21,575 bases of DNA from Elainellaceae cyanobacterium (GCA_051117555.1 JBNPEG010000096.1:2110-23684), one strand, 5' to 3'; shown: positions 11,628-21,575, counted from the first letter of the stretch. Program-made: numbers and translations. Notes: generated by a model not told the origin, from the sequence alone.

Positions 11628-14420
11628 TCAATCAAACCGTGACGTTGTTTCTTTACGGTCCCTAAGCTTTAATTCCGCTCGGACAACGGAGACATCACTG
11701 CCGCGTTCGATGTGAAAGCCTAGCTTTTTACACACTCGCTGCATTCCAGAATTTTCTGCCAAGATTTCAGCAGTAACGCAGTCAATGTGCTCGTCACGAC
11801 CCACAGATAGCAACCGCCGCAGCAATTCAGTGCCCAAGCCACACCCTTGGACGCGATCGCTCACGAGCAGGGCAAATTCGGCATCATTTGTTCCGTAGAG
11901 CTTGCTCAACCGACCAACGCCTAAAATAGTATGCTCTCCAGTGTTTGAATCGGTGTGATCGGCCACTAGCGCAATCTCGCGATCGTAGTCGATAAAGCAG
12001 ATCCGGGTGAGGCGGGGGTGGGCAGTTCGCTGGCTCAAGGCCATCAAATGGAAGTAGCGGAAGTAGACACTTTCCTCGGACAGAGTTTTATGGAACGCCA
12101 CAATCAGCGGTTCGTCTTCCGGGCGAATAGGGCGAATGATCGCGGGCGTACCATCCTTCATGACCCAGGGGGCAACATATTGAACTGGATAGGGACGAAT
12201 AGCAAGTCGAGGTAATTGGGGCTCATTCACCCCAGACTCATGCAGCACGATTCGGGCATCGAGGGCAAGGAGATGATCTGAGGTTGCAAGCAATGGATTA
12301 ATGTCAATATCCTTAATCCAGCGCTGTTCAACAACGAGTTGGCTAAATCGCACCAGCAGTTGTTCGAGGGCTGCTAGGTCGATGGGAGGGCGTCCTCGAA
12401 CGCCGTGGAAGGCTTTGTAGATATGAGTGTGCTCCATCATCCGACGTGCCAGCGTGGTAGTGAGTGGAGGAAGCGCGATCGCCCGGTCTTGAAATACTTC
12501 TACCAATTGCCCACCCGATCCAAACAGCAATACCGGGCCAAACTGAGAATCAATACTGCTACCCAAAATGAGTTCATAGCCGTCTAGCTTGATCATCGGC
12601 TGCACAGTCACACCCAAAAAGTGTTCTGCACCCACTGTTTTACTTACGGACGTTTCAATGGCGTGGTATGCCTGTCTGACTGCTTCGGCATCGGTCAGGT
12701 TAAGCTGCACGCCTCCCACATCCGTTTTGTGGGTAATGGTTTTAGAAAGAAGCTTGAGAACGACCGGATAACCGATGCGATTGGCGCAGTCTACTGCGTC
12801 AGTCTCGGTCGTGGCAACACAGGTTTGCACCACTGGGATTCTATACACAGATAGGATTTGCTTGGATTCTGCCTCGGTTAAAAGGGTGCGATCGCTCTGG
12901 CGGGCAGTCTGGATAATTTGATCTACTAAAGCTCGTTCTGGCACTTCGTCGGCATCAGAGGGAAAGACCGGTGTTTCATAAATACCTTGCAAACTATAGC
13001 TCGATCGCCACATATCGCTAAAGACTTGCGCCGCTGCATCCGGATAACGGTATGTTGGAATGCCTGCCTGATTGAGAATCGCTTCTCCCTCATCGACATC
13101 AGAGCCTCCCATCCAACTGGCGAGAATGGGTTTGCGGGGCTGGCCATTCGCCTGCGAGGTTTCTACGAACGATTTCAACTGCTCCGCTGTTTGAGTCGGA
13201 TCGGTCATGGCCTGGGGCGTGAGAATCACCAGCAATCCGTCGCTGTTGGAATCGTTGGCAGCGACCTCCAGAGCTTTGGTATAGCGGTCAGGGTCGGCAT
13301 CTCCCAGGACATCAATCGGGTTGCCATGACTCCAATGAGTAGGCAGAATGGCATCCAGGGAAGCGATCGCTGACCCTGCTACGTCTGCCAGTTTCCCTCC
13401 AGCAGCAATCAGCGCATCGGTAGCTAGCACGCCTGGCCCGCCTGCGTTGGTAACAATGGTGAGACGCGGCCCCTGCGGACGAGGTTGCTTTGCAAATACT
13501 TCTGCCATGTCAAACAAATCTGAAATGCGATCGACACTCAAAACGCCACAGCGCCGGAATGCCGCATCAAGCACCGCATTACTTCCCGCCATAGCTCCGG
13601 TATGCGACGCTGATGCCTTGGCTGCCGCCTCCGTGCGACCCGCTTTGATCACAATAATGGGTTTGGTTAGCGCAACCTCACGAGCAGCCGAGAGAAACGA
13701 GCGGGCATCGCCAATCGATTCCATGTACAGCACAATGCTCTTGGTGTGAGGATCATTCCCGAGATAGTCGATCAAATCACCCCAGCCCACATCCAGCATG
13801 GAGCCAATCGAAATAAAAGTGCTGAAGCCTACATTTTCTCGAAAACTCCAGTCTAAAATCGCAGTACACAGCGCGCCGCTCTGACTAATAAACCCGACAT
13901 TTCCCGGACGCGCCATACTGCTGGCAAAGGTCGCATTGAGCCCTGTAATGGGATTCATGACGCCCAGACAGTTAGGGCCAATCAGGCGCATGCTGCCACG
14001 ACGAGCGTGCTCTAACACCTGGTGCTCTAGTTCTACCCCTGCCGATCCGGTTTCTCTAAACCCAGCCGAGATAATAATCGCGCCTTTTACGCCTACTTCG
14101 ACACACTCACCAATGATGCCTGGCACCGTAGGGGCAGGAGTCACAATGACTGCCAAATCAACAGGTTCTGGAACTGCCGCGATAGTAGGATAGGCTTTGA
14201 TGCCCAAGACGTTATGCCGCTTCGGATTAACAGGAAAAATAGTTCCACCAAATGTGTTGCTAATCAAGTTCCATACCAGGGTTCGTCCTACACTGCCAGG
14301 GCGCTCGGTTGCACCAATTACTGCGATCGCCCGCGGTGCAAAAATGGCATCCAACGGGCGATAGGTAGAACGCAGAATATCATAGGCGCGATCGGTGGCG
14401 ATCGGAGTGGGAGTCTGCAT
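11628..14420 (-). CDS. Bifunctional acetate-CoA ligase (ADP-forming) family / GNAT acetyltransferase protein (Pat/YfiQ-like architecture)
   Basis: CoA-binding domain ([26 protein letters not shown]), [32 protein letters not shown]-grasp [21 protein letters not shown]-terminal [12 protein letters not shown]...[10 protein letters not shown]. True start likely ATG 14420 (MQTPTP), because the track's extension overlaps the hypE relic. Confidence 0.92.
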
Positions 14421-14490
14421 AGTCGATGGGTGGTAGAGGTCTACCGTTAAGATTAGCCGGAAAACTTGAAGAACTTGTGAGGATATCGGT

Positions 14491-14786
14491 AACCTTGGTA
14501 TCTCCGGTGACAATCTGTACCCCTGCTCGCACTGCTGCCTGCTGAATCGACTGCACGACTTGCCATAGCGTCTCCATCGGCAAGCCTTCCTCTAGGATGA
14601 ATCCCAAACTCAGATACAGCGGACGAGCCCCCGCCATTGCCAGGTCATTCACCGTACCATTCACGGCCAGGGAGCCAATATTGCCACCGGGAAAAATCAA
14701 GGGACGTACTACATACGAATCAGTCGTAAACGCAATTCGATTCCCGGATAGGTGCAGGGTGGCAGCGTCATGCTGGGTGCGATCGC
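14491..14786 (-). pseudogene. hypE: Internal fragment of hydrogenase maturation protein HypE
   Basis: Reads [69 protein letters not shown]...[11 protein letters not shown]. Both ends missing; begins at HIP1 14779-14786. Confidence 0.92.
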
Positions 14787-14944
14787 CCGTCTGATAGTCT
14801 CAAATGACTCAGGCAGCCGGTCTAAAATCCACTGCCGACTGTCGTCAGAAAGGGGCGATCGCACGCCCCCCGGCACTGCCCAAGCGGCATGAATCTTTCG
14901 CGCGCCCAATCGCTCAATCACCGTCTGCTCAAACTGCCGCAGGC
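14779..14944 (-). pseudogene. hoxH: Internal fragment of bidirectional [NiFe]-hydrogenase large subunit HoxH
   Basis: Reads [50 protein letters not shown], matching the cyanobacterial HoxH segment RLRQFGQ..KIH.AW.VPGGVRSPL. Confidence 0.88.
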
Positions 14945-15091
14945 AGGCAGAAGCGTGTTGCTGCCCTCCACCTCAACTAAGCAAAGCCGACAGGCCCCTA
15001 CTGCCGACACTCCATTCAAGAAACAGATCGTAGGAATTTTGACGCCAGCCCCTTTTGCGGCTTGTAAGAGGGTTGAGCCTGCTGCGATCGC
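14939..15091 (-). pseudogene. hoxU: N-terminal [2Fe-2S] fragment of diaphorase subunit HoxU
   Basis: Reads AIAAGSTLLQAAKGAGVKIPTICFLNGVSAVGACRLCLVEVEGSNTLLPAC, with all four 2Fe-2S cysteines. Truncated directly after PAC. Confidence 0.9.
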
Positions 15092-15425
15092 CATGCCCTC
15101 TAACACCCGATGCGGATCGCTTTCTAAGACGCTGCGATCCATGCTGCAATGATGGACGGCGCATCCTCTGGACTCATCTGTTCGTATAGGGTACCGCTTG
15201 GATCTAGCTCAACCAAGGGTCCTCGTCCACAAAATCGCAGACACCCAACGCTGCATACCTCTACGTCTGCTTCTAACCCCGCATGTTGAAGGCGGCCTCT
15301 AATCCCTGTTTGGCGGCTGCCGATCCAGATGACAAACAGCCTGCTGCGGTACAGCAGCGAATGCGCGTTGGCGGGTGGCGATCGCGTTCTTGACGAGCAA
15401 CCTCGCGTAGATTTGCAATATCCAT
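15081..15425 (-). pseudogene. hoxF: HoxF relic in two pieces with a frameshift and an internal deletion
   Basis: ATG 15425 gives MDIANLREVARQERD...IRCCTAAGCLSSGS. After a 1-nt frameshift at ~15290 it continues VGCLRFCGRGPLVELDPSGTLYEQMSPEDAPSIIAA, then jumps at ~15142 to MDRSVLESDPHRVLEGMAIAA (the NuoF-like segment that normally follows DEGDPGAF). Confidence 0.92.
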
Positions 15426-15432
15426 AGTCGTT

Positions 15433-15858
15433 TTACCGCTGTTTTAAGACTCTCACGTGGTCTAAAGCCGATTCTGGCGTTTGTTTGGCGCTGACGGCTC
15501 CATCGACGACAATCGCTGGAGCAATGCCACAGGCTCCTAGACATCGAGCGGCCATGAGAGAAATGTCACCGTCTGGGGTCGTTTCACTGACGCTAATACC
15601 CAAATCTTTTTCCAAGGCTGCCATGATTTGATCGCCGCCTTTGACGTAGCAGGCAGTTCCTAGACACACGACACAGCTATGCGCTCCGCTGGGTTTGAGC
15701 GAGAACAGATGATAGAAAGTAGCTACGCCATAGACTCGGCTTAGCGGCAGCTTGAGCCCTCTAGCACTATAAACTAAGACATCTTATTCCAGATATCCAA
15801 ACGAATCTTGCGCTTTATGAAGCACTTCGATCAGAGCATCGGGCTGATACTGGTGATG
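15433..15858 (-). pseudogene. hoxE: HoxE relic, 5'-truncated, with in-frame nonsense codon
   Basis: Reads HQYQPDALIEVLHKAQDSFGYLE*DVL...LPLSRVYGVATFYHLFSLKPSGAHSCVVCLGTACYVKG...ARCLGACGIAP. TAA at 15784-15786; N-terminus and start not found. Confidence 0.92.
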
Positions 15859-15916
15859 CACACCAGCGATCGCCCAGACTGGAAATCCACGTGAGTCTCA
15901 TTGGCAGGCATGAGTC

Positions 15917-16591
15917 TTAAACGCGGCTTGCCCTGGCAGCTTCTTTGGAGACGCTATAGGTTCCCACTTTGCCTCGATACCACTTTTGACGTTTTAGCCC
16001 AACGGTTAACACATTGGAAAGCCGATGACGGACAAGCGCACGAATCTCTTTAGGAGCCTTATCTATTAAGATACTGTCCATAATGTGGGGCACTTCGACG
16101 ACCTGGTCGGGATACTGCTCTAGAACAGACAGCACGGCTTGCAGCAAGGGGCGATCGCGATATTTGGGCTTCAGATATGCGCCCCACTCGTCTGACTTTT
16201 TGCCAGCCCGCTTAGTCGACGATTTAGAACTCGATTTTGACGGCGTGCGTGATTTTGTAGCACTATCGCCTTTTTTCCGACGTCCACGAGGAGAGGGGGT
16301 TGGTTCTGGACTCACCTCAGCAACGTCAGAAGTAACGCCAGATTGGGAATCATCCGACACGTCTGCAACATCAGTGGCTGGGCCTCCAGCCCCTGCTGCG
16401 ATAGAGGCATCTGGCGCGGTGTCGGGTTCAACCCCAAACATATGAATGACAGTTTGCAAGCTTTTACGTTTGTCTTGGAGGGTTTGAAGTTGAGCTGCAA
16501 TCTGTGCTTCTTGAGCTGCGAGCGTCGACTCAATTTCTAAAAGCTTTGTTTCCATCGATTCTGGGGCGGGCTTTGCGGATGACTTTGCCAT
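15917..16591 (-). CDS. Hypothetical protein: N-terminal coiled coil, disordered acidic then basic linker, C-terminal putative winged-helix
   Basis: Heptad segment METKLLEIESTLAAQEAQIAAQLQTLQDKRKSLQTVI; linker containing PRGRRKK and an S/K-rich tract; C-terminal helices ending KWYRGKVGTYSV. ATG at 16591. Confidence 0.8.
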   Translation of the reverse strand: MAKSSAKPAPESMETKLLEIESTLAAQEAQIAAQLQTLQDKRKSLQTVIHMFGVEPDTAPDASIAAGAGGPATDVADVSDDSQSGVTSDVAEVSPEPTPSPRGRRKKGDSATKSRTPSKSSSKSSTKRAGKKSDEWGAYLKPKYRDRPLLQAVLSVLEQYPDQVVEVPHIMDSILIDKAPKEIRALVRHRLSNVLTVGLKRQKWYRGKVGTYSVSKEAARASRV

Positions 16592-16695
16592 CAAATATTC
16601 TCCATTAACTTCATCTACTACTATTTAACCAGTATTAATGCGTATTAGGATAACTGTCTGGAAAAGTAATTGCTTTTGTTAGACATTTCTGGAAA

Positions 16696-16770
16696 TATAG
16701 CAATCCCCAATGGGGTGTGAGTGGCGGGCATCACTCACATAAAATTCACAAGCGATTTAGGATCGCTCTA
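16696..16770. mobile_element. 75-bp MITE-like element with TA ends (TATAGCAATCC...GGATCGCTCTA)
   Basis: 25-nt terminal arms match 18/25 as inverted repeats. Internal hairpin TGTGAGTG...CACTCACA. Confidence 0.65.
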
Positions 16771-16933
16771 CCAGGAGGAACGAAAAATGAACATGCTTAG
16801 GTGAGATGAGGAGTATAAGAGTACCCGCAAAAGGTACTGCCGAATCTGGATTAGATTTTCCAGAATAGGAACAATACTGACGTTGCGAAATTGATGAATG
16901 ATAGGGAAACCATTAGCCCACCAACCACCCGCT

Positions 16934-17019
16934 GTACGGGCATGGCAATGCCTTAGCGAAGCCATGCCCATAGGGCTATTGCCCCTCCGAAAATCATTCA
17001 TACCCCTCCGAAAATCATT
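16934..17019 (+). repeat. REP-like palindrome (GGGCATGGCA-ATGCC..TGCCC) with the 27-nt module (copy 3, 16953-16979) and a 21-bp tandem duplication of its right end
   Basis: The module TTAGCGAAGCCATGCCCATAGGGCTAT interrupts the right arm. CCCCTCCGAAAATCATT repeats at 16982 and 17003. Confidence 0.85.
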
Positions 17020-17084
17020 TGCCGATGAGCAATGCCACAATACTAAACCTAGTATCATTTGGCAGAAATGAGTCAACCATTTGA

Positions 17085-19915: not shown

Positions 19916-20007
19916 AGATCCCCGGCTTCTGACACAAGCGTCTGATGATGTGCTAACCCGTTTATCAAGAAGCCGGGGATCTGGCGCAGCTAAGGGGATC
20001 TGGCGCA
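19916..20007. repeat. 15-bp perfect inverted repeat element with tandem duplication of its right end
   Basis: AGATCCCCGGCTTCT at 19916-19930 and AGAAGCCGGGGATCT at 19968-19982. GGGGATCTGGCGCA occurs at 19975 and 19994. Confidence 0.85.
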
Positions 20008-20134: not shown

Positions 20135-21575
20135 ATGGCAAATGAGGAACACGTCAAAATTTTGAAGCAAGGAGTTGAAGCGTGGAATCTCTGGAGACAA
20201 GAAAACCCAGAGGTAAAACCTGACCTCCGCTCCGCCGACCTCCGCTCCGCCAACCTCAGCAACGCCAACCTCAGCAACGCCAACCTCAGCAACGCCAACC
20301 TCCGATACTCCGACCTCAGCGCCGCCAACCTCAGCTACTCCAACCTCAGCGCCGCCAACCTCAGCGCCGCCGACCTCAGCTACTCCAACCTCAGCAACTC
20401 CAACCTCCGATACTCCGACCTCAACGCCGCCAACCTCAGCTACTCCAACCTCCGATACTCCGACCTCAGCGCCGCCAACCTCAGCTACTCCAACCTCAGC
20501 TACTCCAACCTCCGATACTCCGACCTCAGCGCCACCAACCTCAGCGCCGCAATACTTAGCGGTGCTATCCTTAGCAACGCTAATTTGCGAGGTGCAGAAA
20601 TCAATGAAGGCACTCAAATTGATGAAAAGTGGCGTTTAGTCATTAACATCCTGAATCAAGGAGGAGAAGGTAAAAATCTCACAATCCAGAACTTTAGTGA
20701 TGTTAACTTCAGCGGGGCCAATTTTACTGGGGCTAAACTGGAATATGTCAATCTCAAAGAGGCAAATCTTTCCCGCTGCATTCTCTCAGAAATAGACTTA
20801 AGCAAAGTAGAGTTGCAAGGTGCTGACCTCAGCAATGCAATTCTCAGAAAAGTTAACCTTAGCAGTGCCGATCTAAGCTCTACTCAACTGGCACGAGCGG
20901 ATCTTACCGACGCAAACCTTGCTCGTACACAAAACTTTGGGACTAACTTTCAAGGTGCTGTTCTCACTGGAGCCTGTATCGCAGACTGGAACATTAACAG
21001 CACGACAATTTTAGACGACGTAGTTTGTGAGTATGTATATCTTCAAGACAATCAGCAAGACCGTCGCCCTCACAATCCCAATAAAACGTTTGCTCTAGGG
21101 GAATTTACTAAACGTTTTCAGCAAGTACTAGAAACTGTCGATCTATTCTTTGATGACGGCATCGACTGGAAAGCATTTCTTGCAACATTTCAAGATTTGC
21201 AAGCTCAGTATGGCAACGAAAACCTCGACATACAAGGTGTCGAGCGTAGAAGTGCTAGTAGCTTTGAGGTGCGTTTAGCCGTTACGGAAGAGCTTGATAA
21301 AGTTGCTGTTGAGCGAGAGGCATATCAAACTTATGAAATCAATCTTCGGCTCCTAGAGGCTCAACATCGGGCAGAACTCCAAGCAAAAGATAAAGAAATC
21401 GAAAGCTATCGCCGTGAAAGTGCCAACATGAGGGAGATTACTCGATTTTTGGCAAGTAGAGAGATTAAAGTAGAGGAACCCAAAATGTCACTTAGACTAG
21501 ATCAAATAAGAATCCTCAGAGCTATCGCTGATGGTGCAAATTTAGATCGAGAAATAGCAGCTCAATTGAATCTTT
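20135..21575 (+). CDS. Pentapeptide-repeat protein (partial, runs off the window end)
   Basis: Open from ATG 20135 to the end: MANEEHVKILKQGVEAWNLWRQENP, two blocks of A(N/D)L(S/R)x repeats, LTGACIADWNIN...CEYVYL...RRPH...FALGEF...ETVDLFFDDGIDWKAF, then a coiled coil and an HTH-like start. Absent from the ORF track because it has no stop. Confidence 0.93.
   Translation, partial: MANEEHVKILKQGVEAWNLWRQENPEVKPDLRSADLRSANLSNANLSNANLSNANLRYSDLSAANLSYSNLSAANLSAADLSYSNLSNSNLRYSDLNAANLSYSNLRYSDLSAANLSYSNLSYSNLRYSDLSATNLSAAILSGAILSNANLRGAEINEGTQIDEKWRLVINILNQGGEGKNLTIQNFSDVNFSGANFTGAKLEYVNLKEANLSRCILSEIDLSKVELQGADLSNAILRKVNLSSADLSSTQLARADLTDANLARTQNFGTNFQGAVLTGACIADWNINSTTILDDVVCEYVYLQDNQQDRRPHNPNKTFALGEFTKRFQQVLETVDLFFDDGIDWKAFLATFQDLQAQYGNENLDIQGVERRSASSFEVRLAVTEELDKVAVEREAYQTYEINLRLLEAQHRAELQAKDKEIESYRRESANMREITRFLASREIKVEEPKMSLRLDQIRILRAIADGANLDREIAAQLNL
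20219..20550 (+). repeat. 15-bp coding tandem repeat array (~22 units, C(A/G)ACCTC(A/C)G core)
   Basis: Near-identical units such as CCAACCTCAGCAACG, CCAACCTCAGCTACT and CCAACCTCCGATACT encode the first pentapeptide block. Confidence 0.9.

Follow-up and report, generated by a model that had tools for sequence, protein, structure and literature searches.

The window, by which we mean the whole 21,575-nt stretch of DNA analysed here, carries on its minus strand, between positions 14380 and 15920, a decayed hoxEFUYH / hyp / nifJ cluster. An ORF list shows this interval (~14380-15920) fragmented into short pieces, and fragments of HoxE, HoxF, HoxU, HoxH and HypE are recognizable in a three-frame translation of the minus strand (Table 1). 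All of the frame-switch readings in the original prediction were found in that translation, including DRTQHDAA and the switch from hoxF to hoxU. The remnants are 85-95% identical to the hox genes of a genome from the same genus (G002; the genome that holds the window is referred to as G000). Gene names are deduced from protein domains and from the established hoxEFUYH order, with hoxU a putative assignment that draws on its position and on an N-terminus conserved among 12 relatives. All hox remnants are truncated, hoxY is missing, and the piece with parts of hoxE and hoxF contains an in-frame TAA (15784-15786) and, in translation, a frameshift near 15290. The locus is therefore a pseudogene array and not a functional operon. 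Contigs from all three sequencing runs examined (X1, X2 and X3) have an extra C behind 15290, which makes the frameshift of the hoxF 5' remnant either private to this assembly or an error in it.

HIP1, the highly iterated palindrome GCGATCGC, was scored as the exact octamer and is hyper-abundant in this DNA. In the window the octamer occurs 29 times, whereas 0.65 copies would be expected from 100 shuffles, none of which reached 29. The density, 1.34/kb over 21,575 nt, is in line with the about 1-1.5 per kb first estimated. Three copies, at 14779-14786, 15084-15091 and 15866-15873, lie around the deletion joints described below. G000 as a whole has 9156 copies (1.51/kb), and the region of G002 that corresponds to the parental state (16,900-36,700; 19.8 kb) has 38 (1.9/kb).

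Outside the array, about 383 nt at 16698-17080 compare with about 36 nt in G002. Roughly 105 nt of this stretch are common to a second congener (G001, 61% complete), and the part at 16695-16776 is similar (73% identity, inverted orientation) to the G002 spacer between hoxY and hoxH (20658-20755).

Table 1. Gene remnants, flanking genes and deletion joints (J1-J6) in the window, and three HIP1-HIP1 deletions elsewhere in G000
Feature	Position	Strand	Description
ADP-forming acyl-CoA synthetase/GNAT gene, 961 aa	11628..14513	-	Intact, downstream; Pfam; collinear with G002:C8 36657-39504
J6	14485..14491		670 bp lost, hypE 3' part; 0-2 nt microhomology, 5 unaligned nt, no HIP1
hypE remnant, both ends cut	14485..14791	-	~aa 44-147 of 364 (tblastn); 87% DNA identity to G002:C8 35681-35981
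J5, hoxH to hypE	14779..14791		14,306 bp lost; HIP1 14779-14786
hoxH internal remnant, 166 nt	14779..14944	-	92.8% identity to G002:C8 21222-21387
J4, hoxU to hoxH	14938..14944		1665 bp lost, including hoxY; 7-nt microhomology GCCTGCG, no HIP1
hoxU 5' remnant (putative)	14935..15093	-	aa 13-64 of 238 (tblastn); 92.5% identity to G002:C8 19408-19566
J3, hoxF to hoxU	15084..15093		1157 bp lost; 10-nt microhomology TGGCGATCGC containing HIP1 15084-15091
hoxF internal remnant, 61 nt	15082..15142	-	~aa 211-231, DRSVLESDPHRVLEGMAIA; 95% identity to G002:C8 18202-18262
J2, inside hoxF	15138..15142		349 bp lost; microhomology AT
hoxE 3' part and hoxF 5' part	15138..15859	-	85.5% identity to G002:C8 17135-17857
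J1	~15859 (15859..15873)		185 bp lost, hoxE start and upstream spacer; 0-2 nt microhomology
ORF, 225 aa	15917..16594	-	Intact, upstream, function unknown; no Pfam family matched; 88% aa identity to G002 ORF 16223-16900
HIP1-HIP1 deletion	G002:C9 47940->48285		357 bp; removes 112-aa ORF; GGGCGATCGCCC
HIP1-HIP1 deletion	G002:C17 132108->134574; joint G000:C174 ~19962-19972		2476 bp; 11-nt GCGATCGCTCA
HIP1-HIP1 deletion	G002:C26 83632->88536		4915 bp, not a multiple of 3; inside 2114-aa TPS-domain exoprotein gene; 12-nt GATGCGATCGCC

Intact counterpart and loss of the hydrogenase system

The parental state was sought by searching the 1541-nt region against 41 genomes, G000 included. Contig C8 of G002 matched in seven collinear pieces spanning 20 kb, with the gene order hoxE, F, U, Y, H, orf, PAS, SpoIIE phosphatase, orf, hypA, B, F, nifJ (PFOR), DHODH-like, hypD and hypE, followed by a 962-aa acyl-CoA synthetase/GNAT gene, the same flanking gene as in the window. 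Pfam domains in the hox ORFs of G002 are 2Fe-2S_thioredx, Complex1_51K+SLBB+NADH_4Fe-4S, Oxidored_q6 and NiFeSe_Hases, the last in the hoxH ORF, and the hypE ORF has AIRS and AIRS_C domains. By both gene order and domains, G002 thus possesses the hoxEFUYH genes of a bidirectional NiFe hydrogenase. With a divergence of 7-19%, G002 stands only as a proxy for the true parent; an exact-pattern scan of metagenome contigs with a 24-nt hoxH word left of J5, run for a closer intact relative, gave 0 matches.

When 18 G002 proteins were searched against G000 with tblastn, there was no second copy of hoxF, hoxU, hoxY, hoxH, hypD, hypE, hypF or nifJ, and hypA and hypB were represented by distant paralogues only. 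The whole hydrogenase system has therefore been lost from G000 and not moved elsewhere.

In G001 the same hox locus (contig C579) is eroded independently of G000, with different joints. Since G002 is intact, the loss of hox in G000 and G001 is parallel. Joint K1 of G001 (G002 coordinates 17003->17278) is without HIP1. Joint K2 (17624->~30892) has a complex structure: some 55 nt of filler could not be placed, and a HIP1 copy lies 9 nt from the left break. The break at K3 lies 4 nt past a HIP1 in nifJ and is joined to the region of an arsC-like gene, its right parent being a spacer that could not be aligned (G002:C19 / G000:C189). Not one of these joints can be scored as HIP1-HIP1.

Deletion joints in the hox locus

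Alignment to G002:C8 resolves exactly six deletions in G000, of 185, 349, 1157, 1665, 14306 and 670 bp for J1 to J6, in agreement with the original count of about six breakpoints with two exact HIP1 hits. True HIP1-HIP1 joints, in which both parents carry GCGATCGC in register, account for two of the six (J3 and J5). At the joint of hoxF to hoxU, the 10-mer TGGCGATCGC is present in both G002 parents; at the joint of hoxH to hypE, a three-way alignment places the 9-nt exact block GGCGATCGC (14779-14787) in both parents and in register. Both switches had been placed on these HIP1 copies from the window alone, and the proposed check, alignment with an intact orthologue to see whether each parent carries HIP1, bore them out. 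J3 (10 nt) and J5 (9 nt) have the form of a short-homology deletion, that is, a direct repeat on both parents in register with one copy left. At the remaining four, microhomology amounts to 0-2 or 7 bp and does not involve HIP1.

At J3, the parent switch falls within the identical block if a synonymous GCC/GCA difference is allowed. At J5, 5 nt upstream of HIP1 (14787-14791; GACGG, minus strand) match the hypE parent, where they code for the native T-G of TGDR. Against G002 hoxH, three of four of these nucleotides upstream of HIP1 differ. A hoxH origin would call for Arg at the second of the positions concerned in G000, and none of 10 other HoxH orthologues has it there. Comparison with both parents thus suggests that the strand switch at J5 probably lies 5 nt outside the perfect block. 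Such an offset could come from an imperfect, mismatched 13-nt heteroduplex that was later corrected, or from an ancestral variant not seen among the sequences at hand.

Two further HIP1 associations held for position and failed for any role in the joint. The third HIP1 copy (15866-15873) does sit 7 nt from J1, and it belongs to the left parent only (it is present in G002), the right parent being without HIP1. Likewise, a near-HIP1 sequence, TGGATCGC, adjoins J2 inside hoxF; it is native hoxF sequence and comes from the right parent only.

The parental HIP1 sites differ in their conservation among relatives. HIP1 occupies the hoxF site (GMAIAG) in 13 of 13 relatives from other genera, the hoxU site in 1 of 12 (with 2 more displaced by a few nucleotides), the hoxH site in 0 of 10 and the hypE site in 1 of 7. 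The hoxF copy (ATG GCG ATC GCx) is kept across many families, in a setting of variable third-codon positions.

G000 is a 256-contig draft, and one single-base difference, the one at 15290, is absent from the contigs of every run; it might accordingly be asked whether short-read contigs were mis-joined at repeated HIP1 words while the true operon is intact. Against this, Logan contigs of run X1 (soil) with at least 99% identity span J5 together with J4 (14745-15005), and also J2. X1 may be the source sample, so that these contigs counter an assembly artefact and do not amount to independent biology. A repeat of 8-12 nt is also too short to mislead an assembler, and the absence of any other hoxFUYH, hypDEF or nifJ sequence in G000, described above, speaks against a hidden intact operon. 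We consider a mis-assembly of this kind next to impossible.

Run X3, an unrelated soil run from another study, yielded the intact form from a relative 90-95% alike. Contigs of this run cover 14491-14790, 14779-14944, 14938-15093 and 15082-15142 as separate pieces that overlap at 14779-14790, 14938-14944 and 15082-15093, and the break coordinates are the same as those obtained from G002. The overlap is 12 nt across each of J3 and J5, both of them HIP1 joints. The X3 contigs are also longer by 675 letters at J6 and by 187 at J1 (15856/15859).

HIP1 among direct repeats and deletion joints

Within the parental region of G002, HIP1 makes up a growing share of direct-repeat pairs as the repeats lengthen: 703 of 13,573 pairs of at least 7 nt (5.2%), 391 of 1394 pairs of at least 9 nt (28%) and 198 of 523 pairs of at least 10 nt (38%). 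From local repeat shares, the chance that both the 10-nt and the 9-nt joint would be HIP1 is about 0.38 x 0.22 = 0.08.

For a test at genome scale, 2,279,467 nt of G002 in 41 pieces (~39% of that genome) were aligned to all of G000. From the resulting 3875 and 4142 HSPs, non-overlapping best HSPs were selected (573 and 575, with about 1.82 Mb aligned), and these were chained within contig and strand. Clean indels were defined by a gap of -40 to +10 nt in the short allele and of 50-40,000 nt in the long allele. This yielded 228 clean indels of at least 50 bp; the long allele belongs to G000 in 127 of them and to G002 in 101. Exact flanking identity of at least 8 nt was found at 20 of the 228, against 0.25 expected and a maximum of 2 in 300 random-placement simulations.

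HIP1-HIP1 joints numbered five among the 228 indels, where random placement predicts 0.013 and never gave more than 1 in 300 simulations. That breakpoints unrelated to HIP1 should merely have landed on a dense motif is a natural thought, given the copy number in the parental region, and the 7-nt distance of J1 from HIP1 does fit chance (about 9% per joint). For J3 and J5 it is refuted by the HIP1 copies that both parents carry in the same register, and it fares no better with the count of five. The claim that the two hits go beyond coincidence is upheld, and we give coincidence practically no credence.

Besides J3 and J5, the five comprise three gene-destroying HIP1-HIP1 deletions outside the hox locus, all in G000, with identities of 12, 11 and 12 nt (Table 1). 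HIP1 pairs account for 5 of 21 indels of at least 300 bp and for 4 of 11 of at least 1000 bp that have G002 as the long allele.

A second feature of these joints is the length of their identity. At the five HIP1 joints it is 10, 9, 12, 11 and 12 nt, whereas HIP1 pairs as a whole average 9.07 (P = 0.006); together with the 20 joints seen against 0.25 expected, this indicates that deletion frequency rises with repeat length. The extra identity extends to either side of the octamer and has no fixed extended motif, as expected for homology-length dependence.

The comparison that bears on a special role of HIP1 is with other repeats of equal length. HIP1 comprises 12.6% of exact direct-repeat pairs lying 50-40,000 nt apart when these are at least 8 nt long, 24.5% at 9 nt or more, 36.0% at 10 nt or more, 42.6% at 11 nt or more and 43.8% at 12 nt or more. 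With the length of each joint taken into account, the expectation is 5.65 HIP1 joints out of 20; the count was 5 (P(X>=5) = 0.72). The share of HIP1 among joints therefore equals its share among repeats, and HIP1 is not favoured beyond its abundance; the excess over equally long non-HIP1 repeats that would mark HIP1-specific recombination is absent from this sample. With the small numbers at hand (5 HIP1 joints, 20 joints of at least 8 nt), an odds preference for HIP1 of 3-fold or more is excluded (P = 0.012) and a 2-fold preference is still compatible (P = 0.078). The original prediction had named this outcome, no enrichment beyond that of any abundant 8-bp microhomology, as one that would speak against it. 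What stands of the idea that HIP1-HIP1 recombination drives gene erosion is that such recombination is real and contributes (J3, J5 and three more deletions in G000); that it is special beyond abundance does not stand.

Four of the 15 non-HIP1 joints with at least 8 nt of identity resemble target-site duplications of small multi-copy elements, their extra segments having 7, 29 and 137 copies in G000 and one being masked as N. These were kept in the main count; when the four probable mobile-element joints are removed, about 4.95 HIP1 joints are expected and 5 seen. One of these elements (G000:C48 ~41728-41861) is about 140 bp long, has inverted-repeat ends and 29 copies in G000, adjoins a HIP1 and has an 8-nt duplication, ATCGCCCC. 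Another insertion, at G000:C231 14532-14631, is masked as N and has the duplication ATCGCCCCG. An element of 103 bp has 137 copies in G000.

We also considered whether nearness to a single HIP1 marks break sites. This was rejected: 11 of 126 non-hox joints lie within 10 nt of a HIP1, against about 8.6% expected.

Probable short-homology deletion and the proposal of HIP1 as a hotspot

Ordinary short-homology deletion, with HIP1 as its commonest substrate, is in our judgement the probable explanation of the locus. A dead hoxEFUYH-hyp-nifJ cluster for a bidirectional NiFe hydrogenase would have been whittled down by six separate deletions once it was no longer needed. J3 and J5 would be products of short-homology illegitimate recombination between directly repeated HIP1 copies in different genes, leaving a single HIP1 copy at each. 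The route may have been replication slippage or template switching, or the annealing of resected ends after a break; we infer this enzymology, RecA-independent slippage as against annealing, and likewise the order of events. HIP1 would be involved as the most abundant 9-12 bp direct repeat in the genome, and not by way of a HIP1-specific machine. J4 may belong to the same class of process, acting at a 7-nt repeat, and J1, J2 and J6 may reflect end joining with 0-2 nt of homology.

A different proposal is that HIP1 is an active recombination hotspot, whether Chi-like, site-specific or as a break site (a nuclease acting at the CGATCG/GATC core, followed by rejoining), and as such actively drives gene erosion. 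All five HIP1-HIP1 deletions destroy genes and their weight among the larger indels is considerable, as given above; of the 6 joints that combine at least 1000 bp with at least 8 nt of homology, 4 are HIP1 joints, a little more than the HIP1 share. The non-HIP1 joints J2 and J6 lie at GGATCGC-like sequences, J1 is close to a HIP1, and the deletions are distributed unevenly between the two genomes (see below). Proposals in the literature point the same way. Akiyama 1998, as cited in PMC5861425 and PMC4390886, described plasmid recombination at an extended HIP1, GGCGATCGCC, in Synechococcus PCC 7002, and a preprint (10.1101/2024.09.10.611283) describes a Chi-like stimulation of homologous recombination and transformation by HIP1 in PCC 7002 that, in its account, deletion of addAB does not abolish. 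Against a hotspot stand the number of HIP1 joints, which is that expected from repeat length and leaves no room for a 3-fold excess, and the preference for longer flanking identity, which a cut-and-religate process or a core-specific recombinase would not need. The five joints also have no common extended motif, proximity to a single HIP1 is at chance level, and the title of Robinson 1997 speaks of the same excision frequency in E. coli. We therefore hold an active hotspot to be unlikely; a modest active effect of HIP1, of the Chi-like kind, is compatible with these data.

Relation to known HIP1 and short-repeat deletions

Bacteria delete DNA between short direct repeats independently of RecA, by replication slippage or single-strand annealing. 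Deletion of this kind is treated by Bzymek & Lovett 2001, as cited in PMC5861425. The deletions described here are like it in having direct repeats of 7-12 nt at the ends, one retained copy and a preference for longer identity. They are unlike simple slippage in their span, since up to 14 kb is a long way for that process, and annealing after a break would therefore be equally likely.

HIP1-flanked deletion is not new, having been reported since 1993 (Gupta 1993; Robinson 1997, the latter to judge by its title). HIP1 was first described from the excision of a 352-bp HIP1-flanked segment of smtB, which was ascribed to illegitimate recombination (Gupta 1993, as summarized in PMC13756078). As in that summary of the smtB case, the deletions in G000 are bounded by HIP1 on both sides, leave a single copy behind, inactivate genes, and are read as illegitimate recombination. 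Whereas the smtB excision was selected in the laboratory, those in G000 are natural and evolutionary, range from 357 bp to 14.3 kb and affect non-selected, decaying genes; the parental HIP1 copies of J3 and J5 lie in different genes (hoxF/hoxU and hoxH/hypE), and the joints are counted against the full set of microhomologies available. In its title, Robinson 1997 (Mol Microbiol 24:181) gives HIP1 excision as similar in frequency in E. coli and Synechococcus, and the present results resemble those assays, as far as the title conveys them, in that HIP1 promotes excision in a manner not specific to cyanobacteria; that work used an experimental reporter, and ours is comparative genomics of two congeneric genomes. 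The plasmid case of Akiyama 1998, as it is cited, likewise has HIP1 at the recombination joint, but site-specific recombination at a 10-mer was proposed there, and the five joints in G000 have no fixed extension beyond the octamer.

Here the dismantling of an unused operon in a cyanobacterium can be followed in a clean natural case for which both parental sequences were recovered. What is added here is another example of the known HIP1-flanked deletion together with a figure for the share of HIP1 among repeats and joints. HIP1 makes up roughly a quarter to two-fifths (25-44%) of direct repeats of at least 9-12 bp, and hence about a quarter of microhomology deletions; its repeat share accounts for its deletion share without any special recombination function. 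This argues against taking HIP1-flanked deletions as evidence of a dedicated role of HIP1 in recombination. It also means that a hyper-abundant motif bears a measurable deletion cost.

Lineage asymmetry and the loss of rmuC

All five HIP1-HIP1 deletions occurred in G000 and none in G002, a 5:0 asymmetry for which (101/228)^5 = 0.017, calculated post hoc. A purely passive model does not predict it, although it is a post hoc comparison of five events. The 2476-bp deletion removes nearly all of rmuC along with the C-terminal 486 aa, including the nuclease domain, of a 1145-aa UvrD-helicase/PD-(D/E)XK nuclease. G000 gave no other match to rmuC, and only aa 1-659 of the helicase are retained. The loss of rmuC and of the RecB/AddA-like nuclease half, itself brought about by a HIP1-HIP1 deletion, could have raised short-homology deletion in G000. 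The asymmetry and the loss of rmuC and the RecB-like nuclease in the same genome form, post hoc, the residual novel angle of this analysis. The wider proposition, that HIP1, by its hyper-abundance, is the main single substrate of the large deletions that destroy genes in this lineage and that the rate of HIP1-HIP1 deletion is under genetic control, strikes us as doubtful. The TPS-domain exoprotein gene that carries the 4915-bp deletion adjoins a CHAT/TPR gene.
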